Positions 5,586 through 28,018 are shown, counted from the first letter of the stretch. The stretch is 58,346 nucleotides of DNA from Nitrospirota bacterium (GCA_038067655.1 JBBTNS010000018.1:1-58346); one strand, 5' to 3'. Notes: generated by a model from the sequence alone, not told the origin. A program made the numbers and translations.

Positions 5586-5724
5586 AAGAGACTATTCCAT
5601 ACGCAAAGACGTATTATTAAAGGGTGAATCGACAAGTGTAATCCAGATAAAACGACCTGTCAACAATAATGACCGAATGCTTTTTCTGATGTTTTGACCT
5701 TCATCCCCAAACCTTGTATTATTA

Positions 5725-5883: not shown

Positions 5884-5893
5884 TTAGCCCAAA

Positions 5894-6916: not shown

Positions 6917-6917
6917 G

Positions 6918-8641: not shown

Positions 8642-9934
8642 ATGCCACACATAAAAGGGTTATTGATCATTCTCTTTTTTTATCTAACTGGATGTGGGGG
8701 GGGTACGTTCCAAGTGCCCCTCCCAGAAGAAAACCCTAACAATACAGCCCCAGTCAAAATAGTGGATCGTTCAACTCTCGTATCTGGAGGAGCGGGTTCC
8801 TTTTTGGATCCGATAACCATCACGCATATCAAAGGTTTGGAATATCCTCATTATCCTTCGGTGGCAGCGGATGGGCAGACCGTTATTGTCGCTTGGGATG
8901 CTCGGCTAATAAAACCGGGGAGACCGGGTTTCTTTGTTCGCTCCATAGATGGGGGAAAAACCTTTTCCCCGCCAGTCAGCCTTTTTACAAAGAATACAGA
9001 TGATGTATCTTATGGTAACCCTTCAGTGGCGATAGATGGCCAGAATGTCTTTATGACATGGGCCTATTCGAGGCGGGTTTTTTTATTTTTTTACATTAAC
9101 CGATTATTTCTTTATCGTTCTACAGATGGAGGAGCCACATTTTCTGGACCCGTTAACATTGCGGGTGGTGTGAGGCGTGTCTTTAATACTGCTGTGGCTG
9201 TGGATGGAAAAACTGTTCTTGTGCTCTATACAGGCATAGATCAAAAGAATAATCGGATCCATAGTCCCTTTCTTACCCGCTCTACGAATGGGGGAAAAAG
9301 TTTTTCAAAACCGATCAACCTTTCACCGGATATATTTTCTCCTTACGATCTTTCAGTGGCTATTGATGGACAGACTGTTATTGTGAGTTGGACGCAGGAT
9401 AGGGATTCTCGAGAACCGAGGCGTCTTTGGTTTGCGCGTTCCACAGATGGAGGGGCAACCTTTTCACCACCGGTGAATCTCGCAAGTCATGAGGGATGGT
9501 TTCCTTCTGTAGGTATTTCTGGACAGACCGTTCTTATAACTGGGGACTTTCCTGGGAAAGAGAGAGGGGTATTGCTTGCCCGCTCCATAGATGGAGGAGC
9601 GACCTTTTCAACGCCGGTTGCCATATCAAAGAGAGCTAGCTCTTCTTGGGCACCTTCGATGGCAATAGATGGCCAAACGGTCATTGTAGCATGGGGAGAG
9701 AGAGATAGTTCGTATAAAGATGCGTCTGACATTTGGTTTGTTCTTTCCCATGATGGGGGGGTAATATTTTCCACACCTGTTAACCTCTCCAATATTGACC
9801 ACTCAAAGGCGAATGCTCCTGATGCTTCGAGTCCCTCCGTTGCGCTAGATGGCCAAACGGCTTTTGTGACATGGACAGGTTCCATGGGTAAAAAAGATGG
9901 TCTTTATCTTGCCCGTATCCCGCTTGGGAAGTGA
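8642..9934 (+). CDS. BNR/Asp-box repeat (sialidase-like beta-propeller) lipoprotein
   Basis: Textbook lipoprotein signal MPHIKGLLIILFFYLTGC. About seven Asp-box repeats (SIDGGKTFS, STDGGATFS x2, STNGGKSFS, SIDGGATFS, SHDGGVIFS). The frame stays open upstream to 8339, so the start is uncertain. Confidence 0.7.
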   Translation: MPHIKGLLIILFFYLTGCGGGTFQVPLPEENPNNTAPVKIVDRSTLVSGGAGSFLDPITITHIKGLEYPHYPSVAADGQTVIVAWDARLIKPGRPGFFVRSIDGGKTFSPPVSLFTKNTDDVSYGNPSVAIDGQNVFMTWAYSRRVFLFFYINRLFLYRSTDGGATFSGPVNIAGGVRRVFNTAVAVDGKTVLVLYTGIDQKNNRIHSPFLTRSTNGGKSFSKPINLSPDIFSPYDLSVAIDGQTVIVSWTQDRDSREPRRLWFARSTDGGATFSPPVNLASHEGWFPSVGISGQTVLITGDFPGKERGVLLARSIDGGATFSTPVAISKRASSSWAPSMAIDGQTVIVAWGERDSSYKDASDIWFVLSHDGGVIFSTPVNLSNIDHSKANAPDASSPSVALDGQTAFVTWTGSMGKKDGLYLARIPLGK

Positions 9935-10047
9935 ACGGATTTTCTGGTTTGACTTCCTCCTCCTACAACTAAACGTAGGGTCACCCATTAACAGTTGATG
10001 TCAAGAGGCATTGTGATCGCTGTGACACCATCTATCGGGACAGACGA

Positions 10048-11514
10048 TTACCTTACAATCGCGATGGTGCTGTTTTGGGGGTCGAGGCCGTCTACCGTTG
10101 CGCCAATTTGGGCCATCTCGACGATATATTGAATCACCTCTTGTGTCACTTCTTCTCCCGGAACCAAAAGAGGGATACCGGGCGGATAAACGGTGACAAT
10201 CTCGGCGCTTAACTTGCCCTTCGCCTCAACCAGCGGGATATATTGCAGCTCCCTGAAGAAGGCATCGCGCGGAGAGATATCAGTGGTCTTTCCAAACGGG
10301 GGAGTCCCGATTTGAGCCGAAAACAACGGCGTCTTCCCATGATACTCTTTTGAAATTTCACGTAAGGCATCCACCAGTCGCGCCAGATCGTCCTTCCGAT
10401 CCCCGATACTCACAATCACTAACACATTGATTGGATCGGCCATCTCCACCTGAATATGATATTGGGTATTCAAAATTTGCGAAACCTGATAGCCAGAAAG
10501 ACCCAAATCTTTTACGGTAACAGTCAGCTTGGTCACATCAAAGCCACCCATCTGCGCAAAAAGCGGATTGGAAACAACATTTTGACCAAAACAAAAAATG
10601 CCGGGAATCCGATTTATTTTCGCCCGCGCATCTTCGGCCAGACGAATGGTTCTGTCCAGCAATGTATGTCCCTCGGTCGCCATCTGCATCCGCGCTAAGT
10701 CGAGCGAGGCCATCAAAATATACGAAGGGCTGGTACTTTGCACCAGCTTCAACACCGCAGCCAATGCCGTCATGTCAATTCGGCTTCCTTTTGCATGGAG
10801 CATCGAAGCTTGCGTCATCCCGCCAATAATCTTATGCGTGCTTTGCACGGCCAGATCGGCCCCGGCCTGCATGGCCGAAGGAGGAAGGTTAGGATGAAAA
10901 CTTAAATGCGGGCCATGCGCCTCATCCACCAAAACCGTTAGCCCTTTCTCATGGGCATACGCAATAATTCGCTTAGTATCGGCACAGATGCCGTAATAAT
11001 TGGGCGTGGTCAGCAAAAGGGTCTTCGCCGAGGGATTTGCGTTAATGGCCTTCACCGTTTCATCATAAGTGACGTTTAAGGTCATCTTCAGATTTTCGTC
11101 TACGGAGGGAAGGTAAAAAATTGGCTTTGCCCCGGAAAAGATGAGTCCAGCTAAGACCGACTTATGGGCATTTCGGGCAACCAATACCGAATCGTTTGGG
11201 CTGCACATGGTTAAAACCATCGCATGGTTGCCGCCGGTCGTTCCATTCAACAGAAAAAAGGAGCGATCGGCACCATAAGCCAAAGCGGCCAGCCGCTGGG
11301 CCTCTTTGATCACGCCCTTTGGCTCTTGCAAAGAGTCCACCTCATCTAAGACAGTGAGGTCAATTGAAAATATTTTCGGGCCGACAAATTTGCGAAAACG
11401 GGTTGAGATGCCCTTCCCGCTTTTGTGGCCGGGGGTATGGAAGGAGACCTTTCGGCTTTCGGCCAAGGCCACCATCGCATCAAACAGAGGCGTCTTAAAT
11501 TGCTCTTCGTTCAA
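10048..11514 (-). CDS. PLP-dependent Orn/Lys/Arg decarboxylase family enzyme (likely arginine decarboxylase of the polyamine operon)
   Basis: Family motifs (HTPGHK, STHKIIGGMTQASMLH with the PLP lysine). Lies in an operon with speE and speD. Confidence 0.8.
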   Translation of the reverse strand: MNEEQFKTPLFDAMVALAESRKVSFHTPGHKSGKGISTRFRKFVGPKIFSIDLTVLDEVDSLQEPKGVIKEAQRLAALAYGADRSFFLLNGTTGGNHAMVLTMCSPNDSVLVARNAHKSVLAGLIFSGAKPIFYLPSVDENLKMTLNVTYDETVKAINANPSAKTLLLTTPNYYGICADTKRIIAYAHEKGLTVLVDEAHGPHLSFHPNLPPSAMQAGADLAVQSTHKIIGGMTQASMLHAKGSRIDMTALAAVLKLVQSTSPSYILMASLDLARMQMATEGHTLLDRTIRLAEDARAKINRIPGIFCFGQNVVSNPLFAQMGGFDVTKLTVTVKDLGLSGYQVSQILNTQYHIQVEMADPINVLVIVSIGDRKDDLARLVDALREISKEYHGKTPLFSAQIGTPPFGKTTDISPRDAFFRELQYIPLVEAKGKLSAEIVTVYPPGIPLLVPGEEVTQEVIQYIVEMAQIGATVDGLDPQNSTIAIVR

Positions 11515-11519
11515 CGGGT

Positions 11520-12440
11520 TTAGTTATGAGTAAATAGAGGATGGTTATCCTCAATAATTCTGTCCTGTTTTTCCATCTGGAGCCGAATATGTTTTGGCAG
11601 AAGGAACTGGCCCCGGTGTATGTCCCCGTCATAGTAGAGCAACTCTCCGGTGATTCGCTCTGCAATCTTACGATTGACCTCTTTTGGATCAATCTCTCTT
11701 GGGTCAAACTGTTTTGAGGCGAGCGCGAATCCCCAGGGCAATCCAAACGACGGAATACAGGCCTGATAGCCGGTTACAATCGGAAAGGCTTGTCGAAGTG
11801 TTTGATAAACCGATGTAAAATTCAATAGATTGTTTGCGGAAGTGGTTCCGGCCTGGAGCGAAATGATCCCATCGGGGCTTAACCGATCAGTCACCAGCGT
11901 ATAAAACTCTTTTGTGTAAAGAAGATAGGCTGGGCCTTCTTCCACCGGCTCGGAAATATCAATGATGATAATATCGTATGTCTCGTTTGTCTCCTCCAGA
12001 TAACGCCGCGCGTCCTGATACCGAAGTATGGTGCGCGGATCGTCAAACGCACCCGCATGCCATGCAGGCAGATGGTCTTTGCAAGAGACGACCACTTCCT
12101 CGTCAATATCAACCATGACGGCCTTTTTAACGGAAGGGTAACGGAGAATCTCGCGTAAAGTCGCTCCCTCGCCTCCGCCCACCACAAAAACACTTTGCGG
12201 ATTCGGATGGGTCAACATTGCCGGATGAACGAGTGCCTCGTGGTAGATAAACTCGTCAGCCTCGGAAGACTGCATCTTGCCATCTAAGACCAGGCAACGT
12301 CCGTAACTAAGCGTGTCAATGATTTCCAGTCGTTGAAAAGCGGTCTGCCGGTCGTAGACAATCTTATCAATGCCATGCAGATGCCCCTCGACGGGGGAGA
12401 GGGAATCAAGAAACCATTTGGAGCTCTTCGTCTCGCTCAT
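11520..12440 (-). CDS. speE: Spermidine synthase (polyamine aminopropyltransferase)
   Basis: VFVVGGGEGATLREILRY, MVDIDEEVV, YDIIIIDISEP. Start set at MSETKSS (12440) rather than the longer ORF start at 12485. Confidence 0.85.
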   Translation of the reverse strand: MSETKSSKWFLDSLSPVEGHLHGIDKIVYDRQTAFQRLEIIDTLSYGRCLVLDGKMQSSEADEFIYHEALVHPAMLTHPNPQSVFVVGGGEGATLREILRYPSVKKAVMVDIDEEVVVSCKDHLPAWHAGAFDDPRTILRYQDARRYLEETNETYDIIIIDISEPVEEGPAYLLYTKEFYTLVTDRLSPDGIISLQAGTTSANNLLNFTSVYQTLRQAFPIVTGYQACIPSFGLPWGFALASKQFDPREIDPKEVNRKIAERITGELLYYDGDIHRGQFLLPKHIRLQMEKQDRIIEDNHPLFTHN

Positions 12441-12837
12441 GACAGGCTTCTCCTTTTTCTGGTTTGTGGGGCAATGATATGCCATCCAACCGCAATGTTC
12501 CTCTTTTCACTTCGATCACAGAGGGATTTTTGGACTCAAACTTTTTTGCTAAATAATCAGCGGCAACAGACGGCTGTAATGTTTCCCCGCAAGTGAAGAT
12601 ATCCACTGCGGCATAGCCATATTCCGGCCAGGTATGAATGGAAAGATGAGATTCCGCAATAATGACAACACCACTGACACCATGCGGATTAAATTGATGA
12701 AAATGTGCGCTTAAAACGGTTGCGCGGGCCTCTTTGGCCGCGTCCACCATGAACTTCTCTATCTTTTTGTAATCATCTAACAATGTTGTGTTGCATTCTC
12801 TCAGCTCGACCAACAAGTGCGTCCCTAAAGCTTGCAC
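12406..12837 (-). CDS. speD: S-adenosylmethionine decarboxylase proenzyme (small SpeH/SpeD type)
   Basis: Self-processing site motif ESHLSIHTWPE; GTG start; overlaps the speE start. Confidence 0.85.
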   Translation of the reverse strand: MQALGTHLLVELRECNTTLLDDYKKIEKFMVDAAKEARATVLSAHFHQFNPHGVSGVVIIAESHLSIHTWPEYGYAAVDIFTCGETLQPSVAADYLAKKFESKNPSVIEVKRGTLRLDGISLPHKPEKGEACHERDEELQMVS

Positions 12838-12920
12838 TCTATTTACCCCCTTTCGTTCGATCCGGTGAAACCGGAGTCATTTATTTTCAAAAACGAAATC
12901 CACAGCAAAAATTCGCTAGG

Positions 12921-12953
12921 TTGTTATAATACATTTTGTTTATACTTTGTCAA
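12921..12953 (-). promoter_or_regulatory. Possible sigma70-type promoter of the speD-speE-decarboxylase operon
   Basis: On the minus strand, TTGACA is followed after 17-19 nt by ATTATAAC (best -10 is TATAAC). Lies about 80 nt upstream of the speD GTG. The -10 is weak and there is no experimental support. Confidence 0.35.
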
Positions 12954-12970
12954 GAAAAATTTTTAAAAAT

Positions 12971-13230
12971 TGTCAGTGACAAATAGAGATGGAAGGTTTT
13001 GAGGTACCCTTTTTGAGAAAGGAGGGAAAGTCGGGCGGGACAATTGTGTTCATTTTGAGGGGCGTGTTTTACTGATTCCGAGTCATCCGTATCGTTGTCA
13101 TGACGTGAAAGCGACGGTTCGTGTGTCGCTTTATGGGGATGGGCGAGTGGCTCTTTTTCATGGGCCTCGGAAATGGGTGGAATATGATGAGAAAGGAGGG
13201 GCTGTTTTACAGTGGGAAAAGGCTGCGTAA
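12971..13230 (+). mobile_element. Internally deleted ISNCY-like IS remnant (5' end joined directly to the last 67 transposase codons)
   Basis: 12971-13026 repeats the 5' end seen at 20626-20705. 13027-13230 translates to ...GRDNCVHFEGRVLLIPSHPYRCHDVKATVRVSLYGDGRVALFHGPRKWVEYDEKG..., which resembles ISNCY-family transposase C-termini as I recall them. Confidence 0.6.
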
Positions 13231-13280
13231 ATCCGCTTCGCAGATGAAGTAAATCATATTGGGGATGCCTAACCAGTTAT

Positions 13281-15801
13281 TCACTCCCTCGCCACCACCG
13301 TGTCGTACAACCCGTAATGGGTCAGACCCGGATGGCTATCTATGCCGGCGTAACGGAGCGACGCGTCTTCGTACCGCCGGAACGCGAACACGGCCTGATT
13401 CATCTGCTCGGTGTTGAACACCTTCAGCCGCACAAGCAGGTGGAAGTCCTTCACCGTCAGGCCTGTGACAACGAGGAACAGCTCCGGTTCGAGTTTGGTG
13501 ATGACATCCTGCAACGTGTTTTCGCGGAAGTCGGTCAGGTACATGAACGCGGGAATCCGCGTCGCAAACTTGATCAGCTTCTCTTGAACAAGCTTGCGCT
13601 TTGACTTGTACTCCTTCTCCTCGTCGGTGAGCTGTTTCTTCTGCTTCTCCGTCAGCTCTTTGTCTTTGGCCTTGTTCTTGAGTTCCCTGACCTTCTCGCT
13701 CTTGTTGATGATGGTCTCGATGATGTGGTCGCCCAGCGAGCGCCAGCCCTCGATGCGCTCAACGGCGGCCATCGCTTCGGGGTTGTCGAGGATGCGCCGG
13801 AGCGTGTCGTTGTCCACGTTCACGAGCAGCGCGCTCTCCCACTTGCGAGCCAGCAGCGTGGCCGAGGTGCCCGCCATCGCGATGTCGAGAATGCCGCCTG
13901 CATCAATCTGCGTCATGTTGGCACCGTCGAAGGCCAGCACGGGCAGGAACGACACGAGGTCCTTGACGGCGTTCTCCGGGTTCGGCTCGTTAGGCGACAG
14001 GCCGATTGCGTACTCGGAGAGCTGCCGCAGCGCGCGCGTGGGCGCGAAGTCGAACACGAAGCAGACGGGCTTGAATATCTCCTCTTCGTTCGGGTTGTCA
14101 CCGTTTGGGTTCTTGATGGACCAGGGTGACTGCACGCGGAACGCGGCCTGAAAGTAGGTCTCCGGCGACTTGAGATTGCGCAGCATCAGGATGGATGACC
14201 ACTGCGGCACCGTGACGCCGGTGGTGAGCTTGCCGCAGGAGAGCGTGATGGTCTTGGTCGTAAACCCGCTGCCGATGGCCGTGCGCACGGGTGGCAACGC
14301 ATCCAGTCCGATGCCCGCAGATGCGCCAGCAGCGACGACCACCTCATAGTCGCGCCAGAAGGTGTTGTGCTTCTCGGCCAACAGGTTCGCCATCGCGTGG
14401 CAGGCCGCGACGTTGGGCAGAAACCAGAACGAGTGCTGCAAGTAGGGCAGCAGGCGAACGTCCGAGTGGCCGGGTGCCAGTCTTGAGATACTCCACCGCC
14501 TTGGGCGCATACCCGCCGCGGATGATGTCCAGCCACTTCTGCACATCGCTCTTGTGCTTGAACTGCGCCTTGAGGCCCGTGCCCGATGCCTCGAAAAACG
14601 CGTTGAGATCGAACTCGTCGAACTCCCCCGCGCTCGCTATGGCAACCAGTTCGTCCGGCATCTGGTAGGTCAGCAGGCGCATCTGCGGCAGCGCGCCGTA
14701 GGGGTTCCACTGGCCAAGGTTCTGGGCGGCGAACGCTTCCTTGGCGCGCTGTTCGTCCGTGTACGTCCAGTTGAATATCTGCTCCTCGATGAACTCGCCC
14801 GTGGCCAGAGCCTTGAACGGGGTGCCCGAGAGGTAGAGATACGCCTTGGTCGTGATCGGTAGGAACTGATCCGAGAGCTCCTTCAGGTCTTCATTTACTC
14901 TCTCCAGATTCTTGGCGTATTCGATCTTTACCGCCTCTTCCGCGACTGCATCTTCCTCACCTTCGAACAATTCCTTGGCGGTCTCCCGCCACGCGCCGAA
15001 ATGGTATTCGTCGAACACCACGAGGTCCCACTTCACTTTGTGCAGCCATTCGTTCTTGGGCTTGATGTTCCCCGCCGCATCGCGGCCGAGCAGGTCTTGG
15101 AAGGAGCCGAAATAGACGACCGGCTTCTTGCTGTTGATCTTCGTCGGGTCTCCGTCGGAGTGGCGCGACAGGTACTGCCAGCCGTCGAAGTCCACATGAC
15201 TTTCAATATCCGTCTGCCACGCGTCCTCCACGGCGGGCTTGAAGGTCACCACGAGCACGCGTTTGGCGCCGAGCTTCCGGGCCAACTGATACGCGGTGAA
15301 GGTCTTTCCGAAGCGCATTTTCGCATTCCAGAGAAAGCGCGGGACCGCGTGCATGTCTTCCTTCCAGATGGAGTGGAAGTAGGCGTGGGTCTTGTTCACG
15401 GCGTCGGCTTGCTCGCGGCGCATCACGAACGTCTCGTGATGGGTGCCGGTGAATCGCTGGCCGGTGCGGAGTTCAGTGAGCACGGTTTGCACGTCCGTGA
15501 CCGAGCAGCGCATCCATTCCAGTTCGACGTTCTCGATCCCTTTCCTGACAAGTGCAGCGCGTACGTCGTGGTCACTGAAAATGCTGCCGTTGTCGCGCTC
15601 GGCGGATGCGTCGAGTTCAATGCGAAAGCTCTTGATCGCGGCGGTCTTGAGCTGCTCGGCGACACGCTGCTTCACGTCGCGTGTGGTCTGGCCCACCTTG
15701 AGGAGGCCCGCGTGCGCTTCGTCGGAAATGGAGTAGGCATAAATGCGCGGCCGGGCTTCCGGCTTGGGCGCAAGGATTTCTTCGATGGTGGGCTTGCTCA
15801 T
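13281..15801 (-). pseudogene. T5orf172/GIY-YIG-like nuclease domain fused to a DExH SF2 helicase (about 840 aa), broken by one frameshift near 14475-14485
   Basis: N-terminus IYAYSI...GLLKVGQT; helicase motifs AKMRFGKT, VVFDEYH, LSGTP, GKLTTGVTVPQW, QAAFRVQS. ORFs 14344..15801 and 13281..14546 are consecutive parts in different frames (…AVEYLK / PGHSDVRLLPYLQHSFWF…). Confidence 0.75.
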
Positions 15802-16805
15802 GACGACCTCTCGATGACTTCCCAGTGGCCGGCCTTGTCGGAGCCGATCCGTTTGAGATGGCCCTGTTCACGTAGTGTTTTGAGATGGCGTTCCACGGTT
15901 CGAGTGGTCTTGTTCAGCAGGGTTGCCAACTCCTTGGCTGACAAATGCGGCTGCTGCGCCAGGAATCCCAGAATTTGGCCACTTACACCGACATTTACAC
16001 CGACATCTTCAGGGGTGGTTTCCACGCTCTCCGTCGCCACATCAATGTACTTGTACAGCGAATTGGCTATGGCATCGAGCATAAAACCGATGAACGGACG
16101 GCAATCCAGCGCGCCGGTATGCGAATCCTGCAACGCCTTGTAGTACAGCGCCTGATTGTGGTGAACCAGGGTTTCAACCGGCATCCAGGCAAACAGCGGG
16201 TTCCATCGGGAAAGAATCAGCGTCTGCCACAGCCGCCCGATTCGGCCATTGCCGTCGCGGAAAGGATGGATGTATTCCAGCATGTAGTGGACGGCGGAAC
16301 TCTTGATGAGCGGGTGCGCTTCGGCGGTCTTTCCCCAATCCAGAAGCTGCTCGACCAGGGCGGGGACATCTCCCGCCGGAGAGCCACGGTGCATCACCGT
16401 ACCATCGCCGCTCACGACGGCCACACCGACTGTGCGGAACCGGCCCGACTCTCCGATGAGTGCGTCGGTCAGATGCGCGTGGGCTTTCAGAAGGTCGCTC
16501 ACCGACCAGGGCTCATAGCGGGTCATTTCGTTGTAGGCATGCCACGCGTTCTGCACCTCTTTGATGTCCTTGGGCGGCCCCCAAACCGGTTTGCCGTTGA
16601 TGACATCGGTGACTTGACCCAAAGTGAGCCGGTTTCCTTCAATGGCCGTGGAGGCGTGAATCGAGAGAATGCGGTTGAGTTTGCGCAGATGCAACAGATC
16701 GCCCGACTGCTCCTCGCTGATCTTGACGCGTTCCAGCAGGGTGTGAATGGCGCCGATCTTTTCGTGCCACAGGGGGTCGTCCGTATAAAACTTCTCAAGC
16801 GGCAT
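15798..16805 (-). CDS. Fic/DOC-family protein (class II, with N-terminal inhibitory helix) and C-terminal winged-HTH
   Basis: Catalytic motif HPFRDGNGRIGR; inhibitory motif STAIEGN ((S/T)xxxE(G/N)); C-terminal HTH (SAKELATLLNKTTRTVERHLKTL). Its stop overlaps the helicase ATG (ATGA). Confidence 0.85.
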   Translation of the reverse strand: MPLEKFYTDDPLWHEKIGAIHTLLERVKISEEQSGDLLHLRKLNRILSIHASTAIEGNRLTLGQVTDVINGKPVWGPPKDIKEVQNAWHAYNEMTRYEPWSVSDLLKAHAHLTDALIGESGRFRTVGVAVVSGDGTVMHRGSPAGDVPALVEQLLDWGKTAEAHPLIKSSAVHYMLEYIHPFRDGNGRIGRLWQTLILSRWNPLFAWMPVETLVHHNQALYYKALQDSHTGALDCRPFIGFMLDAIANSLYKYIDVATESVETTPEDVGVNVGVSGQILGFLAQQPHLSAKELATLLNKTTRTVERHLKTLREQGHLKRIGSDKAGHWEVIERSS

Positions 16806-16858
16806 CACGTGCGGACCTCCGGCTTGGGCGCAAGGATTTCTTCGATGGTCTTACTCAT
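16805..16858 (-). other. 17-codon ORF (MSKTIEEILAPKPEVRT) duplicating the N-terminus of the helicase gene
   Basis: 32-bp identity between 16818-16849 and 15758-15789. Has its own ATG and a GAAGGA Shine-Dalgarno-like sequence. Its stop overlaps the Fic ATG (TGATG). Confidence 0.6.
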
Positions 16859-16955
16859 TGCGCTATCCTTCGAGTTCAGTGTGATAAATCTATTACTCAT
16901 TGAGGCTCTTGAAAAGTCGTCGAAACTGGCTCCCCCGCCCCCTAACCCCCCGCCT

Positions 16956-18137
16956 TTAGCGGAACGCCGCTTTTGACGCGTCCGCTGGAAGGCATTGTTG
17001 GGCATCTTTTAGTTTTGTTGCTAACTCGCGGCCTATTTTTTCTGCAAGCAACACAGGAACTGCATTCCCGATTTGGCGCATAGCTTCACTCCATGCACCT
17101 TTAATAACAAAATCATCGGGAAATGTTTGTATCCGTTTGGCCTCAAATGTAGTGAGATATCGAACACTCCCATCGTTGAAGCGGATCATGTTTTCCCCGC
17201 CAGGCACGCCATGCCCACCGGCTTTAATTGTTTTTGACGGCCAATCAAAATCACTGCCTGTATGCCCAGGATATGTGCGTGCACCCTCTCGAAATATGTG
17301 GTCGATTATTTTGTGATCAGACTCCGGGTTGGGTGTATCGGATAAAGCATCCCGTACTGTTTTCCACGGCAGTAACTCGGGTTCAAACATCCCATACTTA
17401 TCTTTAAGCCGAGATATCTTTTCTTTCAGGATCACATCTAAAACAGGCCGTGCTGACTTAGCCACTTTGTGGCGGTCCCAGTATTCGCCCGTTACGTACA
17501 TATCCCAAAGAAGCCTGTCTTCCGAGTGTGTTTCTACGGGAAATGACCAAGACATTTTGAGGTCGGATCGTGCGCCCACGATGACAACCCTCTCCCGGGT
17601 TTGAGGCACCCCAAAATCTGCGGCATTTAATAGCTTGTACTGAACGTTATATTTTTTTCCAATGTAGGAAGATTTTTCAATAGTACGAAGCTTGTCAAGA
17701 TAACTTCCCCAATCTGCATTTTTACCTGGCGCAAAATCCGGATAACTTAGCCTAAGAATGATGTATTCAAAATAGTCAGAAAAAGTCTCACGCAATAGGC
17801 CTTTTACATTTTCAAAAACAAATGCTTTAGGTGTAAGCCGTTCAATTGCGCGTATAGCGTAGGGGAACATGTCTCGGCTATCTTGATGCGCCCTATGCTT
17901 GCCGCCCAATGAAAATGGCTGGCATGGCGGGCCACCCGCAACGATGTCAACTTGCCCAAGGGTGTCTAAATCGAAGTCTTTTATGTCGCCAAAGAAAATT
18001 GGCACCGAGTCAAAATTTTCAGAGAGTGAGGCACAAGCATGCCGATTAAACTCAACGAAGGCTGCATGCTCAAAACCCGCTAACTCCAGGCCTTTAGCCA
18101 ACCCGCCAGCACCTGAAAATATTTCAAGGGTTTTCAT
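16956..18137 (-). CDS. DNA (cytosine-5)-methyltransferase
   Basis: Motifs I FSGAGG, IV GGPPCQPFS, VI ENVKGL, VIII QTRERVVIVG and X GNAVPV. Starts 3 nt after the upstream Eco29kI-family endonuclease gene ends. Confidence 0.9.
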   Translation of the reverse strand: MKTLEIFSGAGGLAKGLELAGFEHAAFVEFNRHACASLSENFDSVPIFFGDIKDFDLDTLGQVDIVAGGPPCQPFSLGGKHRAHQDSRDMFPYAIRAIERLTPKAFVFENVKGLLRETFSDYFEYIILRLSYPDFAPGKNADWGSYLDKLRTIEKSSYIGKKYNVQYKLLNAADFGVPQTRERVVIVGARSDLKMSWSFPVETHSEDRLLWDMYVTGEYWDRHKVAKSARPVLDVILKEKISRLKDKYGMFEPELLPWKTVRDALSDTPNPESDHKIIDHIFREGARTYPGHTGSDFDWPSKTIKAGGHGVPGGENMIRFNDGSVRYLTTFEAKRIQTFPDDFVIKGAWSEAMRQIGNAVPVLLAEKIGRELATKLKDAQQCLPADASKAAFR

Positions 18138-18139
18138 CG

Positions 18140-18781
18140 CTACGACCCCAAGCGCTTTAGATGAAGCCGTATTTTAGAAACGATGGTGCTTTTTTCTGCA
18201 TGCGCTCCATTGCACTTATTCGCCCAAGCTCGGCCTTCGTGGATAACGTCCCAATCTGACTTGGCTTGCTCGTATCGACCGCTCCCGGGGTCGTGATTGC
18301 CAAAGCCATCAACGGCAGTATTCCAAAGCGGTATATTCATCTTAATGAGAGCCGCCTCGATTGTGCTAATCATGTCCGAGCCTACGTCTTCGAAAATGAC
18401 GAAGCGGCACATGAAATCTTCGAGCAGCAGGCCAGCGCCAAGCGTAATGCCCCTGCTGTGCTCTCGAAGGCGGCCAATCAGTTCGCGAGATTGATTTAGT
18501 GCGTTGTCCGACGAGCGAGCTTGACGCCATCCTTTTGGAACAGCCTTGCCCACATAGATGGGGTAACCGTAGGAAAGGCGGTTTAGCTCCGCATATCGTT
18601 TATATAGTGGGTTGCGTCCCGTGTAGTACAGAGCGTACACCCCTGTTCCAAAGAATGATTCCGGCGGTGGAAGTGTGTGAACGGGGGTGCCGTTAAAGAA
18701 TCTGACTGCATCTTTGACCAATTCGTCAAAGGCATCGTTTTTATACACATGCTTACTTCGGTCAAACGCTTGCGGCTTCAT
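18140..18781 (-). CDS. Eco29kI-family (GIY-YIG type) type II restriction endonuclease
   Basis: 213 aa with GVYALYY...YPIYVGKAVPKGWR, matching my recollection of Eco29kI. Paired with a C5 methyltransferase. Specificity (CCGCGG for Eco29kI) is not verifiable here. Confidence 0.7.
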   Translation of the reverse strand: MKPQAFDRSKHVYKNDAFDELVKDAVRFFNGTPVHTLPPPESFFGTGVYALYYTGRNPLYKRYAELNRLSYGYPIYVGKAVPKGWRQARSSDNALNQSRELIGRLREHSRGITLGAGLLLEDFMCRFVIFEDVGSDMISTIEAALIKMNIPLWNTAVDGFGNHDPGSGRYEQAKSDWDVIHEGRAWANKCNGAHAEKSTIVSKIRLHLKRLGS

Positions 18782-18835
18782 ACGGCAGTATTTCCTATCT
18801 CAAATTGGCAGGTATATTTTCTCATAATCTGGCAG

Positions 18836-18961
18836 TCACGTCAAAGTAGACGCCCAACGCGACGTTGGCGCCAGCCAATCCCAGAAGGCCGGGTAGAAGT
18901 CCAGACCGTAGTGCAGGTTCTTCGCGGACATGAACACATTGGTGTCCAGCAGATAGCTCAT
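18836..18961 (-). pseudogene. DUF4411 (PIN-like) protein, truncated after about 30 genuine residues
   Basis: MSYLLDTNVFMSAKNLHYGLDFYPAFWDWL is followed by unrelated residues and a stop. Its ATG overlaps the ImmA stop (ATGA). Full-length family members are about 160 aa. Confidence 0.6.
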
Positions 18962-19853
18962 ACCGTCACCCCCAGCTCGCGGGCCGCTTCGTAGAAGGTG
19001 GCCGTCTTGCGCATGCCCAACATGCGAAAGGCATCCGGGAACGAGGTCAAGCCCTCCAGCGTGCTGACCTTGAACTCGCGCGCCAGCCGCTGTATTTCGT
19101 CCGGAATTGGCGCGTTGCGCTGGTGCGCTGCTCGCAGATCCTCCATGGGCATCAGCAGTTCCGCTGCCACCTGGTTGCACCAGCGTTCTGTTTGCTGCTC
19201 GGGCAGCTCGCCCGCCTGCGTATCCGACACGCCCGTTGCAGCCACAAATGGGCGAGTTCATGCGCCAGCGTGAACATCTGGGCAGCCTTGCTGTCGGCAC
19301 CGTTCAAGAATACCAGCGGCGCAAGGCCGTCCGCCAGTGCGAAGCCGCGAAATTCGTCCACGTCCAGCTTGCGGTGGCTGTTGCTGCCCACCACGGAGCT
19401 GACCATTACCATCACCTCGGCGTCTTCGGCCTTGGCGATTAACTGGCGCAACGCGTCCGTCCATGTGGGCAACTGGCGACGCGCTTCGGTGGACAGGGCT
19501 AGCGTCTCGCGCAGGCTGGCACTGCCGACGAACGCCAAGGCAGGTAAGCCGTGCATGCGGGCATGGTCGCGGTACCAGTCCTGTCGCTGCTGGGTTCAGC
19601 GAGGGCCTCGTCGCGCAGGGTACGGAAGTCTGGCACCGGCAACGCCAGCTCTGGCGGTTGGGGCAGGAAGAAGTAGCCGAAGGCCGTGCGCGTGAGGCGC
19701 GCGAAACATTCCAGTTGCTTGAGCGTGGGCTGGGCCTCTCCGCTGAGCCACAAAGGCCACTTGGCGAAGCGAGCCGCTAGGTCGCCGTCGTTCAAGTGTG
19801 CGCGTTGCGCTGCCCAGCGAAGCACGGGGATGGAAGCTGCTACGGTTGTTCAT
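18958..19853 (-). pseudogene. HTH + ImmA/IrrE (DUF955) zinc metallopeptidase, with at least two internal frameshifts
   Basis: Three consecutive frame segments: LRWAAQRAHLNDGDL...PVPDFRTLRDEAL; QRQDWYRDHARMHGLPALAFVG...FTLAHELAHLWL (HExxH); and AATGVSDTQAGELPEQQTERWCNQVAAELLMP. Frame switches lie near 19600 and 19243. The SD-preceded ATG at 19853 is in yet another frame. Confidence 0.7.
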
Positions 19854-19916
19854 ACCACCCCCTTGGGCAATGTTGCCAGCGCCGTTTGCATCATCCCTGC
19901 GGCCAGCTCGCCCACC

Positions 19917-20528
19917 TACCGGTGGGTAGGCCCTCCTCGGCGTAAAGATATCGTGCTTCGCAAGGTGGGCGAAGAGCGAGCCCTTCGCGCTGAAGGCCGA
20001 TGACTGGGTGAGGGTATCGTAAAGGAAATCACGCCGCTGAAACCGGCCCTTGCCCAGATAGCCCCACTCGGCAAAGGTGATCGGCTGGCCGTCGTGGGTG
20101 CGCATCGTCAGCGCGTTGCCGTGCACGAGGTTCTGCGATAGGACCAAGGATGCCGCGCGATAGAGTTCGGCCGACTCATCCACGATTAGGTATTCCGCAA
20201 AAATCTCCAGCATCTTCGCGCGGCACTCGGCGATGTTGTCCTCCAAGAGCTCAATCCCGTAGGTGCACATTAGAGCGAGAAGGGCGTAGTGTCGCCTTTC
20301 AAAGTCGGACTTCCCGAACTTGAGTTCAACGGCCGCGAGCTTCCGTTGCAGGATGCGAACGAGGAAGTTCCCGCTCCCGCACGCCGGCTCCAGGAAGCGA
20401 GAGTCAATGCGTTCGGTCTCGTCTTTCACAAGATCGAGCATCGCTTCAACCATCCACGCCGGGGTGAAGACCTCCCCGTGGTCGGCGACGCGCTGTTTAG
20501 ACTTGACGTAGTTCATAGGCCGATGCAT
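19917..20528 (-). CDS. N6-adenine DNA methyltransferase-like protein (SAM-binding motif I only); 3' end aberrant
   Basis: HGEVFTPAWMVEAMLDL and FLEPACGSGNFLV resemble Eco57I/N6-MTase N-terminal regions. I see no NPPY-type motif. The ORF has no in-frame stop until 19596, well inside the ImmA pseudogene, and the tail is an Arg/Gly/Ala-rich out-of-frame read. Confidence 0.45.
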
Positions 20529-20625
20529 TTCAGGCGACGCTTCCTTGTTGTCACCGCAGGTTAACCAATTATTGTCTGGACGGTATCAAATTTTGAACGT
20601 GTAATCAATCAAGCCAGCGAGAGGA

Positions 20626-21035
20626 TGTCAGTGACAAATAGAGATGTCCGGTTTCAGAACACATAATCTGGAAGGTTTTGAGGCACCCTTTTTGAGAAAG
20701 GAGGGTGCTGATGAGACCAACAGAACCAAGACAGGAGATTCGGAAGATGAGATTTGAAGAAGCATATGAAGATTGGAAACAAAATCGTTTAACCCAAGAG
20801 GAAGCCGGAAGGATTCTTAGGGTCAGTGATCGGACATTTCGACGTTATTTGATTGGGTATGAAGCCGAGGGATTGGATGGCCTGTTGGATAAGCGTTTAT
20901 CCATAGGATTCGCCCCGGCGTGCGCCGGTCGATGAAGTGATCGCGCTAACGACAATGTATCGGTCGCATCATTTGGGCTGGAACGTAAAACATTTCTATG
21001 GTTTTTACAAGAGAACAGACTTTTGGAAAGTACCT
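20626..21035 (+). mobile_element. ISNCY-like IS remnant: 5' end plus the first ~100 transposase codons (frameshifted, 3'-truncated)
   Basis: The RBS AAGGAGG and ATG at 20711 give MRPTEPRQEIRKMRFEEAYEDWKQNRLTQEEAGRILRVSDRTFRRYLIGYEAEGLDGLLDKRLS. After a frameshift near 20915 it reads RAPVDEVIALTTMYRSHHLGWNVKHFYGFYKR. Homology is lost where gtrA ends (21039). Confidence 0.6.
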
Positions 21036-21038
21036 GAC

Positions 21039-21419
21039 TCATCTAAAAGTGATGTATTTATGCCCAAGGTAATTGGTGATCGCCACGCCCCCTTTGGCCA
21101 GCGCCGAACCCCACAAGTACCACCATCCCAATATTTCGACACTAACAACAATAATCAGGCTATTTAAAACTAAACCGATTGTAAGGATGGAAAAAAAAGA
21201 AAACAATTCTCCGGCACTAATCGCACCCCGACTTTGAAAGGTGATATATTTTTGTAAAAGGTATCCGATCATCCCAACGGATAGAAAAGCCACCGTTGCG
21301 GAGAGGAGAATGCTCAGGTGAATGTATTCCACGAGAGCATACATAAAACTCATATCTAACAGCGCACAAAATCCGCCCACAAATCCAAATTTAAAGAGCT
21401 GTTTTAATTCCCGTCCCAT
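21039..21419 (-). CDS. GtrA-family membrane protein
   Basis: 126 aa with four TM helices and FKFGFVGGFCALLDMSFMYALV; lies downstream of a GT2 polyprenol-phosphate glycosyltransferase. Confidence 0.75.
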   Translation of the reverse strand: MGRELKQLFKFGFVGGFCALLDMSFMYALVEYIHLSILLSATVAFLSVGMIGYLLQKYITFQSRGAISAGELFSFFSILTIGLVLNSLIIVVSVEILGWWYLWGSALAKGGVAITNYLGHKYITFR

Positions 21420-21457
21420 TCCACATACATTTTTGAAAATAATTCAGTTCCCATTCC

Positions 21458-22378
21458 CTATGACTTCCTCCTTTGGATAGAGGAGTAAATCTCATTGAAT
21501 CGATTCTTGATGCTATCCAACACCAATCCAATTCCTATTAAAAGGACACTGGATAAAACAAGACCCACTGAAAGAATGGCCAGAGGAACATGGGTTATGA
21601 ACCGTGTCTCAATAAATTCCAATACCACAACCAGCCCACTGGCTGCTCCAGAGATAAAGAGAAAAGCCGAAGAGACACCAAAAAAGAGAAGCGGCTTGTA
21701 ATCCCTCAAAATCATGAGAATCTCCATGATAACCTTGTATCCATCCTTGATTGTGCTTAACTTGGAAAAACTGCCCTCGGGCCGCTCTCGATAAGGGATC
21801 CCAACCTCTTGGATAACGAGCCCCTTGTTCAAACACTGTAGGGTTAACTCTGTTTCAACCTCAAAGCCTTTTGCCATAATCGTAATGCCATCTATGACTT
21901 TCTTGGACATCACCCTGTACCCCGACATAATATCTTTCAGTGATACACCAAACAACGTATTAACGAGCCATCTCACTAGGCCATTTCCCATAACATGAAG
22001 GGGCCTAAACGCATGTTCCTCATAAACAAGCAGACGATTCCCCACCACCATGTCGGCTTGATCCTCTATGACCGGCTTCAACAAGTCGGTCACGTGTTCT
22101 GCAGGGTAGGTATCATCTCCATCAACCATGACGTAATAATCGGCCTCCACTATTTCGAACATTGATTGAACAACATGGCCCTTGCCTTTTTTCTTTTCTC
22201 GGATAACCACTGCCCCAGAGGCTTTTGCCACCTCTGCTGTCTTGTCGGTACTGTTGTTATCAAAGACATATATTTTTGCCAAGGGGATTGCATTACGAAA
22301 ATCCTTTACAACCTTGCCAACCGTTATTTCTTCATTGAAACAGGGAATCAGAATGGCGATTGTTTTTTCTGGACTCAT
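21458..22378 (-). CDS. Family 2 glycosyltransferase (polyprenol-phosphate sugar synthase, GtrB/DPM1-like)
   Basis: IAILIPCFNEE, FDNNSTDKT and MVDGDDTY (DxD), plus two C-terminal TM helices. Confidence 0.8.
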   Translation of the reverse strand: MSPEKTIAILIPCFNEEITVGKVVKDFRNAIPLAKIYVFDNNSTDKTAEVAKASGAVVIREKKKGKGHVVQSMFEIVEADYYVMVDGDDTYPAEHVTDLLKPVIEDQADMVVGNRLLVYEEHAFRPLHVMGNGLVRWLVNTLFGVSLKDIMSGYRVMSKKVIDGITIMAKGFEVETELTLQCLNKGLVIQEVGIPYRERPEGSFSKLSTIKDGYKVIMEILMILRDYKPLLFFGVSSAFLFISGAASGLVVVLEFIETRFITHVPLAILSVGLVLSSVLLIGIGLVLDSIKNRFNEIYSSIQRRKS

Positions 22379-24033
22379 CTCTGTGTTACCTCATAAATCA
22401 CAATAGATTTCTTTTCAGTTAATCTTCGCATGGTTCCCCCTATTTTTTCAATAAAAGTAGTTGGCAGCAAGTGGTTTTTTTCTATAAAAGAGACGGCCTC
22501 TGCCACAAAAATCATTGACAACCCCGGAGTGAGTTCAATGGTTTCTTTTAGTGCCCAATGCGCTGGCGGATTATGGACTTCGAATGGGTAATCCAGGGCA
22601 GCGCCTTTATGCGGCCTGAAGTATTCTTCTTTGCCGATAATCACCCAGTCCCCTTTTTGAGGATGAAAGGAGATTTCCTTTTTTTCCCATGTTCTGTAAT
22701 TTAGACCCGCGTACGGAATGAATCGGTCTCCCCCCTCTACCCCTAATAGGAACTCAAGAGCCGGTTTTAGCCTGGGATCTGAATAGAATTTTCCGGCCGG
22801 TTGATCAGCAATAAGCGGGACAATCCGTTCAGCGACCGTCGATGTTGTGTTTTTATAGAATTCTTTGCAAAATGCAGCGCTGCCCAGAGACGAAAGCAAA
22901 AGAATAATAACAATAAAGCCCTTCACTGGCTTCTTTAGGCAGAACAAAAACCGGCTGATGACTAAAAGAACGGGAGGATTCATAAACGATAAATACTTCG
23001 CCAGTTTAGGAAGCGGCAAATACTCGGTTAAAGATCCAGATCCAAATTGAAGATAGAGATAAGGGACCAAAAACCATGCGAATAGTCTTAAAGACATTTT
23101 GTGATTGAGAAAAAGATAGACAACAGAAACGACGAAGACATAGAAAAAGAGTCCGGTCTGATGAATCGCAAAAAACATATGCCGAATGTACTGGTTGGGA
23201 AGAGAGACATTTCTTTCGAGTTCTACATGTTTTAACATCGTTTTTACATCCGAACCCACCGCTGTTAACCGATAAAACCAGATGTCCGTATGAACAAAAT
23301 AGAAAATCTGTTCCCCGGCAAAAATAACGGCAAATCCAAAAACAATCAGAGTGTATTCCCAAAGGATTCTCTTGGCCTGCCAACTGTCGATCAGGCCAAA
23401 AATACCAAAAACACCCAATATCAAAATCATGGGCTCTTTTGCCAAATAACCGAAACCAATGGATATTCCACACAACACAAATGCGCCATATCTTTTAACA
23501 AGACCACTCTCTCCAGCATTTTCTTTGGCAATTAAATAAAATAAGAACGAAACCAGTGAGAAAAATTCCAGGACGGGTTCTGGCGTGAGGGTGGTACTCA
23601 CAATCACACTTAAAGGCACAAAAGCGTATAGTAAAGATGCCAGCAAAGCCGTATTTTCATCTCTAAAATATTTGTTTGCACAAAAAAAGATCAGAACAAC
23701 TGAAGCGATGGAACAAAGAAATGGCCACAAAAAAAGTGCAACCTTAGACACACCAAAAACCCACATAAAAAAACTGGCTGGAACAATAATCCCGGTCCGT
23801 AGCGCAAAATGATGAGGGCTAATCCAAGGGGTCCCATTCATTATTCGCATGGCCGTATGGGCATAGCTGAGCTCGTCATTGGTTCCAAGGGGCATAACAA
23901 AAATAAGCCGAATCAAAGCAGCCAGTAAGACCGTCAAGGAAAGAGTGCTCATGGCTTTTTTTGACAAATTGCACTTCGTTGCTAACTCACTCCAGCCGTT
24001 AGAGACTAAGCGGATTATTGAGCTGTTCATCAT
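22375..24033 (-). CDS. ArnT/PMT-like (GT39/GT83-type) polytopic glycosyltransferase
   Basis: Large multi-TM N-terminal region with a soluble C-terminal domain. Overlaps the GT2 gene start. The start codon is uncertain (24033 or 23952; the ORF is open to 24168). Confidence 0.55.
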   Translation of the reverse strand: MMNSSIIRLVSNGWSELATKCNLSKKAMSTLSLTVLLAALIRLIFVMPLGTNDELSYAHTAMRIMNGTPWISPHHFALRTGIIVPASFFMWVFGVSKVALFLWPFLCSIASVVLIFFCANKYFRDENTALLASLLYAFVPLSVIVSTTLTPEPVLEFFSLVSFLFYLIAKENAGESGLVKRYGAFVLCGISIGFGYLAKEPMILILGVFGIFGLIDSWQAKRILWEYTLIVFGFAVIFAGEQIFYFVHTDIWFYRLTAVGSDVKTMLKHVELERNVSLPNQYIRHMFFAIHQTGLFFYVFVVSVVYLFLNHKMSLRLFAWFLVPYLYLQFGSGSLTEYLPLPKLAKYLSFMNPPVLLVISRFLFCLKKPVKGFIVIILLLSSLGSAAFCKEFYKNTTSTVAERIVPLIADQPAGKFYSDPRLKPALEFLLGVEGGDRFIPYAGLNYRTWEKKEISFHPQKGDWVIIGKEEYFRPHKGAALDYPFEVHNPPAHWALKETIELTPGLSMIFVAEAVSFIEKNHLLPTTFIEKIGGTMRRLTEKKSIVIYEVTQR

Positions 24034-24320
24034 CGTATTGGCTTCATGTGGCGTTATGTTGTTGTGTGACCTTTGATAATCAAAAAACGCTGGGTAAGGG
24101 CTTGTAACTGCCTTCCTCCTTCTCGCAATTTTAAGAGCTGTGGAGCGACCCACGGTACCATAAACCATTTAAATTATGCTACTCCCAAAAAACGAGAGAG
24201 CGGCCATTCACGGTAATCGGTATAGACATAAGTGACAGGCCCAATACATTCCCTTTACATCACTCCAAACCCCGTTGTAGAATCAAGATTGATTTAATCC
24301 TATTTAATAAGGAGTAGCGG

Positions 24321-25877
24321 ATGTCAGTTCAAGGAGATCGTTTTCGAAAGCTTTCGGGCACTGTATTTTTATTGCTAATTGGTACTGTTGTTGGAGTCAC
24401 GTTGGTTTCGGAGTTTCGCCTAATGCCAGTTGGAGAAGCGGTAAGCGACTTGGTAAAAGGAAAGAAAGAAGCGGGTTTTTCTGCCAAAGATGATATCCTT
24501 CCGTCTAATCAGATTTTCGTAAAAATTGCGAAGGCGGTGACGCCTGCTGTGGTAAATATCTCTACAACACGCATTATCAAAAGCAGCGGCGGGGGCGGAG
24601 GACAGAATTTCCCCTTTAACGATCCCCTTTTTAGGCGATTTTTTGGAGACGAAGACCCCTTTGGCGGTCACAGAAAAAACGCTCCGCCTCGGCAACGGAA
24701 AGAACAAAGTCTGGGGTCAGGCGTTATTGTATCCTCTGATGGGTTGATTATCACCAACAATCATGTGGTCGAGGGGGCCGATGAGATTAAAGTTTCGTTG
24801 GAAGATAAGCGAGAGTTTAAGGGGAAGGTCGTTGGAAAAGATAAAAAAAGTGATATCGCGGTTATTCGAATTGACGCAACCGACTTAACAACCGTTCCGT
24901 GGAGCGACTCTGACAAGCTGGAGGTGGGAGAATATGTGGTCGCCATTGGAAATCCGTTTGGCTTGAACCAAACGGTGACGATGGGGATTGTCTCGGCCAT
25001 TGGACGTGCCAATGTTGGTATTGCTGATTATGAAGATTTTATACAAACCGATGCCGCGATTAACCCGGGCAATTCTGGGGGCGCGTTGGTGAATATTCGC
25101 GGGGAGTTAGTCGGGATTAACACCGCGATCTTCACGCGAAGCGGCGGTTATATGGGGGTGGGTTTCGCCGTACCCAGCAACATGGTTCGATCCATTATGG
25201 ACTCTCTTGTTGCAACCGGCAAGGTTTCCCGCGGCTGGCTGGGAGTTTCTATTCAAGATATTACCCCCGCATTGGGGAAAGAATTTGGACTCTCTGCAGA
25301 GAATTCCAAAGGATCGCTTGTGACGGATGTCATGCCCGACTCCCCTGCGGCAAAAGCGGGGCTTAAGCGAGGCGATGTCATTCTCTCTTTCATGGGACAC
25401 GAGGTTGACGATGCCAGTCATTTACGCAATCTGGTTGCGCGAGCGTCTGTTTCAAGTCGTGCCTCTTTGAAAATCATGCGGGACAAAAAAGAAAAGGATA
25501 TTACCGTAACACTCTCCGAACAGCCGAAAGAGGTGGCACAAAAGGGGGAAAAGGGGGAGTTTTTTGAGCTCGATCAGGAGCCCGCCGGGCTTTTTGGTTT
25601 TTCCGTACACGATATTTCTCCCGAAATAGCGGAACAGTTTGATCTTTCTCCAAAGGAGAGAGGGGTTGTGATCGTACAGGTAGAGACTGGAAGTCTTGCC
25701 GAAGAGTCGGGGCTTCGGGAGGGGGATATCGTTATGGAAGTGAATAGAAAGGCAGTCTCTGATTTAAAAGGTTACGAAAGACTTTTTTCAAAAATAAAAA
25801 AGGGCGATTCTGTGCTATTTCTTATTAACCGTCAAGGAAATAGATTTTTTATCAATCTCTCTCCAGAAAACGGCTAA
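24321..25877 (+). CDS. htrA: Periplasmic serine endoprotease DegP/DegQ/HtrA with two PDZ domains
   Basis: Catalytic triad contexts TNNHVV, DIAVIRI and GNSGGALVN, followed by two PDZ-like segments. Confidence 0.9.
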   Translation: MSVQGDRFRKLSGTVFLLLIGTVVGVTLVSEFRLMPVGEAVSDLVKGKKEAGFSAKDDILPSNQIFVKIAKAVTPAVVNISTTRIIKSSGGGGGQNFPFNDPLFRRFFGDEDPFGGHRKNAPPRQRKEQSLGSGVIVSSDGLIITNNHVVEGADEIKVSLEDKREFKGKVVGKDKKSDIAVIRIDATDLTTVPWSDSDKLEVGEYVVAIGNPFGLNQTVTMGIVSAIGRANVGIADYEDFIQTDAAINPGNSGGALVNIRGELVGINTAIFTRSGGYMGVGFAVPSNMVRSIMDSLVATGKVSRGWLGVSIQDITPALGKEFGLSAENSKGSLVTDVMPDSPAAKAGLKRGDVILSFMGHEVDDASHLRNLVARASVSSRASLKIMRDKKEKDITVTLSEQPKEVAQKGEKGEFFELDQEPAGLFGFSVHDISPEIAEQFDLSPKERGVVIVQVETGSLAEESGLREGDIVMEVNRKAVSDLKGYERLFSKIKKGDSVLFLINRQGNRFFINLSPENG

Positions 25878-25938
25878 GGCTTCCTTCTGTCTTTTCGTGA
25901 CTTCTTTTTTCGTTCGCTTTTGAGTAGAGGGAAACGAT

Positions 25939-26796: not shown

Positions 26797-26821
26797 TATA
26801 CAATCTTCCTATATTATTTTA

Positions 26822-27999: not shown

Positions 28000-28018
28000 T
28001 GCTTCGCACGAACGACAG

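Follow-up and report, generated by a model that had tools for sequence, protein, structure and literature searches.

Compound transposons and the IS26-type pseudo-compound transposons and translocatable units share one architecture, in which cargo genes lie between two direct-orientation copies of one insertion sequence (IS); in the IS26-type units, this orientation is the product of cointegrate formation or of insertion beside an existing IS copy (PMC7986276, PMC8722046). The locus described here has the same layout: in contig C18 of a Nitrospirota metagenome-assembled genome (MAG; GCA_038067655.1) from groundwater, an island of ~7.3 kb with a high guanine-plus-cytosine (GC) content and defence genes is flanked by two remnants of an ISNCY element (throughout, the window designates the whole contig of 58,346 nucleotides (nt), and not the island alone). 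Here, however, the IS belongs to ISNCY and not to IS6/IS26, neither copy is functional any longer, any target duplication and the outer right end are missing, and there is no evidence that the island ever moved as one. The explanation that we tentatively favour overall is that a foreign defence operon was joined to the genome through IS copies, by cointegration or recombination, and later decayed.

For the cargo, the closest described system is DnmA (YeeA)-YeeB-YeeC, made of an MmeI-like methyltransferase without a nuclease, a superfamily 2 (SF2) helicase and a T5orf172 protein, which has been reported to be a defunct restriction-modification (R-M) relic in Bacillus subtilis but to act against certain phages in Vibrio crassostreae (PMC9973331). 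The likeness, drawn by domains only, lies in the common set of an MmeI-type N6-adenine methyltransferase, an SF2 helicase and a T5orf172 (GIY-YIG-like) domain; both also occur in a horizontally acquired island, and the B. subtilis copy is likewise a non-functional relic. In contrast to that system, the island operon fuses T5orf172 and helicase into one protein (842–866 amino acids (aa) in intact relatives), splits the methyltransferase in two (~216 and ~530 aa) and embeds accessory genes, and the copy in the window has the second methyltransferase part deleted and the helicase frameshifted. Type ISP and helicase-fused Type IIG R-M enzymes offer another comparison, as the helicase and the part 2 of relatives match separate stretches (positions 155–676 and 1001–1359, respectively) of one PADLOC model, PDLC03626 (REase_MTase_IIG, 1359 positions); here, however, the functions would be distributed over three polypeptides, and the candidate nuclease would be T5orf172 rather than Mrr/PD-(D/E)xK. 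A smaller cassette nested in the island carries the same gene pair as Eco29kI of the Escherichia coli plasmid pECO29 (NC_001537), an endonuclease and a C5 methyltransferase, but at only ~69% nt identity, and inside another defence operon. As for the IS, it shares with the ISNCY family (NF033594) an N-terminal helix-turn-helix (HTH), a conserved C-terminal motif and imperfect terminal inverted repeats of ~50 nt, whereas its own MAG, 40 relatives and 36 other genomes of the order yielded no intact copy of this subfamily.

Composition and operon content of the island

The MAG amounts to 1.06 Mb in 79 contigs, is 55% complete, and has a GC content of 47.6% overall, with 1-kb windows averaging 47.6% (standard deviation 3%). 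Two parts of the island depart from this background, 13281–16950 at 59.5% GC and 18855–20564 at 62.1%, which bears out the rise (about 60% against the mid-40s) that a first-pass annotation of the sequence had reported between the IS copies. Inside the island fall 19 of the 27 1-kb windows of the whole MAG that reach at least 56% GC, and in tetranucleotide distance the two GC-rich parts (0.47 and 0.54) exceed the maximum of 0.37 recorded for 3.7-kb windows elsewhere in the MAG; in this sliding-window analysis, the composition is not uniform and the GC-rich parts lie, by tetranucleotides, beyond all other windows of the genome. What does not hold is the idea of a single composition, since the 1.9-kb Eco29kI block (16951–18854) sits at 48.0%, equal to the genome. 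On each side an AT-rich spacer lies between the operon and the IS remnant, 38 nt at 37% GC on the left (13243–13280, between the left remnant and the helicase stop codon) and 61 nt at 41% GC on the right (20565–20625, between the operon upstream region and the right remnant, with a weak minus-strand site that resembles a promoter), and neither sequence has a match in any retrieved related locus or in the MAG.

All recognisable genes of the island are on the minus strand and defence-related, as had been noted before, with open reading frame (ORF) and profile searches in agreement. Read along that strand, they begin with methyltransferase part 1 (19917–20528), the N-terminal half of a putative MmeI-type N6-adenine methyltransferase, which retains residues 1–204 of ~216, followed by an ImmA/IrrE pseudogene (HTH and M78 peptidase; 18964–19843) spread over three frames with an internal deletion, and by the remnant of a DUF4411 (PIN-like) gene (18869–18961; codons 1–31 of ~164). 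Beyond the Eco29kI cassette come a 38-nt duplicate (16812–16849, 95% identical) of the 5′ coding end of the helicase gene (15752–15789), situated upstream of Fic; an intact Fic/DOC gene (15798–16808) embedded in the operon and recognised by profile matches, with a C-terminal winged-helix domain as in SoFic; and the T5orf172 (GIY-YIG-like) and SF2/ResIII helicase pseudogene (13281–15801), in which an 11-bp deletion near 14468 leaves the ORFs 14344–15801 and 13281–14546, the N-terminal one matching PF04851 and PF10544.

When species genomes were scanned with the Fic protein, 80 loci in many phyla came up, at 48–89% protein identity, and in many of them one operon is collinear with positions 20535–19900 and 16869–13281 of the window. 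The best collinear matches reach 85.4% nt identity (L063) and 84.5% (L044, in a Nitrospirota MAG of 60% GC) over ~3.6 kb, and loci collinear at 74–85% are found in Betaproteobacteria, Caldilineales, Nitrospirota, Spirochaetes, Bacteroidota and others, representing at least six phyla. In most GC-rich hosts the GC content of the operon matches that of its flanks, and at L063 another operon of 60% GC is set between flanks of 38–45%. A bare three-gene unit is carried, at ~75% nt identity, by mobilizable plasmids of Sphingopyxis, Rhizobium, Deinococcus and others. In intact operons, the backbone comprises part 1, part 2 (an Eco57I-type catalytic and recognition region of 531–585 aa) and the fused T5orf172-helicase protein, and the variable genes embedded in it are ImmA with DUF4411, RhuM, DUF1016 or Fic. 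Judged from these alignments, the backbone is one widespread, partly plasmid-borne operon, which would encode a split MmeI/Eco57I-type N6-adenine methyltransferase and a T5orf172-SF2 helicase. The outlying GC and tetranucleotide values, together with the collinear loci in unrelated phyla and the plasmid-borne forms, argue that the GC-rich DNA was horizontally acquired and is foreign to this genome.

The first codons of the helicase recur upstream of embedded accessory genes, Fic and others, at many unrelated loci (L086, L061, L063, L044 and L104 among them), and accessory cassettes seem to enter at the 5′ end of the helicase gene, bringing or duplicating that end. The closest relative of the Fic gene (L169, on the JGI 3300045502 contig; 90% aa and 88% nt identity) consists only of Fic and a duplicate of ~50 nt of the helicase start, and no helicase or methyltransferase was found near it, so that the Fic cassette also exists apart from the operon. 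Elsewhere in the same MAG, at C7:7247–8868 between pilT and uvrB, lies the old wreck of a second operon of this type, at the host GC content of 43–49%, which retains 40 and 98 codons of parts 1 and 2, respectively, with 49 codons from the end of the helicase, and encloses an ORF resembling a REP-associated tyrosine transposase (8043–8678).

Decay has gone far in the island as well. Methyltransferase part 2 is absent from the window, the helicase shows its single 11-bp deletion relative to six relatives, and only the Fic and Eco29kI genes are intact. The nested Eco29kI-type cassette (minus strand) is delimited by a 90.8% nt match over exactly the span 16951–18854 in an unrelated environmental genome of 4.6 Mb and 49% GC, and carries full-length ORFs for the C5-methyltransferase (16956–18137; PF00145, 7e-63) and the Eco29kI GIY-YIG endonuclease (18140–18781; PF09517, RE_Eco29kI, 4.5e-70). 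It stands where the C-terminus of DUF4411 and methyltransferase part 2 would be; as comparison with intact relatives shows, it was inserted after the operon arrived, replacing most of DUF4411 and all of part 2, after which the helicase lost its 11 bp and ImmA became frameshifted. The island is a nested mosaic of at least three acquisitions, namely the backbone, the embedded ImmA/DUF4411 and Fic genes, and then Eco29kI, and hence not as one delivered block. A contig from well H32 (L170, ERZ1292631) differs by one base from positions 16357–18564, its methyltransferase being called at 381 aa and not 393, and may represent a variant of the Eco29kI methyltransferase present in that well.

The flanking ISNCY remnants and their element

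The 21-mer TGTCAGTGACAAATAGAGATG is found exactly at both 12971 and 20626, and the 37-nt block 12990–13026 is 97% identical to 20669–20705, in line with the IS ends that the first-pass annotation had placed at both flanks. Both remnants are on the plus strand. The left one (12971–13242) is made of the left inverted repeat, from which 24 nt are missing between the 21-mer and the 37-nt block relative to the right copy, and of the ribosome-binding site (RBS; 12971–13026 in all), followed by the transposase end (13027–13230) and 12 further nt. Its jump from the RBS straight to the last 67 transposase codons (13027–13227) had been recognised earlier and agrees with the alignment to a reference element (L013); the earlier description made no mention that the right end is missing too, similarity ending 12 nt past the stop codon, at 13241/13242, with the loss of a right end of ~125 nt that includes the inverted repeat. 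The right remnant (20626–21014) keeps the left inverted repeat, the RBS and transposase codons 1 to ~101, with codons 1–64 in frame (20711–20902), a 1-nt insertion near 20905, and the remaining codons ending at 21014. Its first ~100 codons and frameshift are thus as previously described, but it is not cut exactly at the end of gtrA, since 24 nt separate the cut from the gtrA stop codon (21039–21041).

Both flanks align to the common reference L013 (G016:C107, from another genus), which carries N- and C-terminal coding parts and both ends. Identity is 90.5% nt over 20632–20916 and 88.1% over 13009–13241, and 82% and 87% for the respective protein fragments, the latter value being that of the 67-codon protein of the left copy against the C-terminus of L013. 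On an intact homologue of 400 aa, the right remnant corresponds to residues 13–98 and the left one to 333–393, the catalytic core being in neither; the only intact homologue found is 47% identical. With the NCBIfam model NF033594 (ISNCY; cut-off 250), the N-terminal fragment of the window reaches just 27.5 bits, its C-terminal counterpart gives no hit and L013 has 164 bits, while a related fragment of 273 aa (L016) reaches 256.3 bits. The flanks are accordingly best read, from their sequence, as two decayed remnants, in the same orientation, of one putative ISNCY element. The two copies overlap by just 56 nt, of which 55 are identical; typing their alleles by the left ends was tried and rejected, the 24-nt deletion spanning variable positions with an ambiguous placement.

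The termini of the element, TGTCAGTGACA... and ...TGTCCTCAACA, form imperfect inverted repeats of ~50 nt and were defined from L013, from G005:C284 and from a derivative in G011:C7 that resembles a miniature inverted-repeat transposable element (MITE). The window copies retain the left terminus only, and no right inverted repeat of this IS was found in the window or in the whole MAG. The MITE-like derivative (L153, G011:C7:20365–20576) is an internal-deletion form of 212 bp, joining 143 nt of the left end to ~70 nt of the right end.

With a GC content of 46–49%, the IS is host-like. Its stubs occur at 86–92% identity, nearly all decayed, in several genera and families of the host order, among which core genes are only ~70% identical, and the copies found across the MAG and the genomes of the order are truncated, frameshifted, MITE-like or at contig ends. 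Four stubs lie on four contigs of one genome (G001), with further ones in G016, G004 and G011, and the MAG itself holds three additional left-end stubs, two on C48 and one on C59, which brings its total to five in 1.06 Mb. Between genomes of different families, the right-hand fragment G005:C284:23–602 (L137) and L013 are 98% identical over 580 nt, which suggests either that the IS passed from one lineage to another very recently or that IS contigs were cross-binned. From these distributions, the ISNCY element is a resident of the host lineage, circulating and decaying within the host order. Its host-like GC and order-wide stubs, set against a cargo that matches the operons of GC-rich hosts, indicate that the operon left its GC-rich donor without these IS copies.

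A second bracketed segment is present on C48 (20229–23581; L003, L004), where two same-orientation left-end stubs of 51 and ~105 nt enclose 3.2 kb with a ParE/RelE-type pair, a YefM/YoeB-type pair and a gene for a lipoprotein of 437 aa. A CHASE2 histidine-kinase gene adjoins the longer of these stubs and takes from it the RBS and the initial codons (MRP...) of its open frame. For C48, too, an empty site could not be established, the kinase gene being found in one relative only, at a contig end. If stubs were placed at random, two same-orientation bracketing pairs among five of them would arise with P ~5e-4, for a threshold set post hoc. It is conceivable, although improbable in our view, that in this lineage the ISNCY element itself is a gene-capture device, accessory cassettes having been repeatedly placed between same-orientation copies; IS26-type translocatable units or one-ended capture may then be at work, the defence operon and the toxin-antitoxin block of C48, both of which have left-end stubs on either side, being their footprints. 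We know of no translocatable-unit or gene-capture mechanism described for ISNCY elements, and IS-mediated capture, if true, would extend IS26-like behaviour to another IS family.

How the island came to lie between the remnants

Could the structure be an artefact of assembly, a GC-rich segment from another organism or locus having been joined through repeated IS sequence? The MAG is only 55% complete, the community contains several copies of the IS, Logan contigs end within the right remnant (at 20741 and 20957), and in a second MAG assembly (GCA_964365815.1) the island is interrupted at 13883, 14513 and 20237–20291. That second assembly nevertheless gives, with different contig boundaries, an identical sequence: L043 corresponds to 5671–13883 and includes the left remnant, L041 to 14513–20291, and L037 to 20237–31419 with the right remnant and one mismatch, at 29361. 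Both IS-to-GC-rich junctions are 100% identical in it, and its island contig, of 57% GC, is binned with the host despite the odd composition. All junctions are reproduced at 99.9–100% identity across this assembly, Logan contigs and a contig of the European Nucleotide Archive (ENA), including those of the Eco29kI cassette (Logan contig L042, 16820–19397; ENA contig L170, 16357–18564, 99.95%). Hainich groundwater is the source of contigs that match parts of the window with full or almost full identity (ERZ1292631 'Hain_H32'; runs ERR3858126 and ERR3858122), and in the H32 assembly the island contig and the gtrA contig have similar coverage, 3x and 4x. Moreover, the unique deletion junctions of the left remnant tie, within 270 nt, the unique speD flank to GC-rich DNA, and the C-terminal part of that remnant has no other copy in the MAG. 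Taken together, an artefact is very improbable.

Delivery by the IS, through transposition, cointegration or recombination, is plausible. According to the explanation favoured here, direct-repeat IS copies would have bounded the incoming segment and supplied the join, the likely route being that an IS carried by the incoming DNA formed a cointegrate, or underwent homologous recombination, with a resident IS beside gtrA, which would give a pseudo-compound structure; a classical compound transposon moving out of a GC-rich donor would be less likely. Later deletions would have taken the interior and right end of the left copy and three quarters of the right copy, and would have halted just short of gtrA (24 nt) and of the −35 box of the speD promoter (18 nt), as expected if further loss was selected against. 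A hint of recombination between IS copies may be seen in L039, a contig of well H32 (ERZ1292631) that is identical to the window from 20988 through the IS truncation point, the 24-nt spacer and gtrA, with one further difference in the GT2 gene, and that differs from it at 31 positions over 20803–20987 (~16% divergent), where its frame is open; a Logan contig from another run ends at 20957, the edge of this divergent block. Either IS copies recombine at the gtrA junction, or this 4x contig wandered into another IS copy. Such recombination, if real, would fit homologous exchange or cointegration better than a one-step compound transposition.

The first-pass annotation had proposed a composite-transposon delivery, and of this proposal the foreign DNA, the defence island and the decayed same-orientation ISNCY flanks stand, while the delivery as stated does not, there being no outer right inverted repeat, readable target duplication, transposase core or, in the collections searched, second IS-cargo-IS unit. 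On that account, two full ISNCY copies and the operon moved as a unit, via the outer ends, into the speD–gtrA interval and then decayed, which would agree with the two direct-orientation remnants of one IS at 38 and 61 nt from the operon, with their near identity where they overlap, and with the second IS-bracketed accessory segment on C48. The flanks do belong to the same IS, but intact outer ends are not found, a left inverted repeat being kept on one side and the right copy being cut at codon 101 on the other; no functional transposase is found in the remnants, and no intact copy in a MAG that is 55% complete. The same IS-cargo-IS unit was not found among the 80 related loci or on plasmids, the relatives of Fic and of the operon being without such IS flanks, and the 21-nt IS end had no match in a scan of the metagenome collection, absences that are weak evidence in both cases. 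At least four separate later deletions would be required, and because the IS is host-lineage DNA and the cargo foreign, the unit would need to have arisen inside this lineage after an earlier acquisition. Among the three explanations still in play, a classical compound transposon does not have the strongest support, and we regard it as unlikely. Somewhat less doubtful, yet still not what we would expect, is a coincidental flanking, in which the operon came by plasmid integration, transformation or illegitimate recombination and ISNCY copies inserted independently, before or after, and then decayed. Solo stubs of the IS are indeed abundant in the lineage, the gtrA region is itself probably accessory, synteny breaks here in all relatives, and IS insertions are tolerated in such places; against coincidence stand the two same-orientation pairs that closely bracket accessory cassettes among so few stubs, and the position of both stubs within 38–61 nt of the operon. 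Compound transposition, IS-mediated recombination and unrelated IS insertions each need several later deletions.

Several points weigh against a join by cointegration or recombination. No result tells it apart from compound transposition or from a pair of unrelated IS insertions. Neither copy retains its right inverted repeat, whatever target duplications there were are lost, and the relationship of the two IS copies, which overlap by only 56 nt, cannot be dated. As both adjoining spacers are AT-rich, the operon possibly resided in low-GC DNA before the IS copies mattered. No empty site is definable in relatives, since these are 71–76% identical and synteny is lost on both sides of the island. 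The mosaic of L039 comes from a contig of 4x coverage and possibly from an assembly walk through another IS copy, and the agreeing assemblies may share reads with that of the window, which makes them good evidence, short of proof.

Neighbouring genes and biological meaning

The segment sits, as first annotated, between the speD promoter region and the gtrA cluster. On the left, the minus strand carries a sigma-70-like promoter of the speD-speE-speA operon (12926–12953; TTGACA-16-TATTAT, 11/12 matches; SpeD and SpeE assigned by NCBIfam), which is retained, the left stub beginning 18 nt upstream of its −35 box. On the right, past the other stub and also on the minus strand, lies a cluster of gtrA, a GT2 glycosyltransferase and a PMT-family glycosyltransferase (21039–24168), whose GC content of 42.6% is under the genome mean. 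A search of 12 relatives did not find this cluster, which probably belongs to the accessory DNA as well. Conservation among relatives extends on the speD side no further than the promoter, and the neighbour on the htrA side varies from one relative to the next; the whole interval of 12.9–24.2 kb, from speD to htrA, looks accessory.

The locus is an ordinary kind of genomic island, a defence operon between IS stubs, and its interest lies mainly in the nested series of decay and in the recurrence of this IS beside accessory cassettes. It offers a clean example of the turnover of defence DNA in a small-genome groundwater bacterium, where a plasmid-type, restriction-like operon was acquired across phyla, overwritten by a smaller R-M cassette and largely lost, with IS debris marking the site. 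The survival of Fic and of the Eco29kI R-M genes suggests which parts remain under selection. The locus supports the view of variable regions as graveyards of defence systems, a view that it leaves unchanged.

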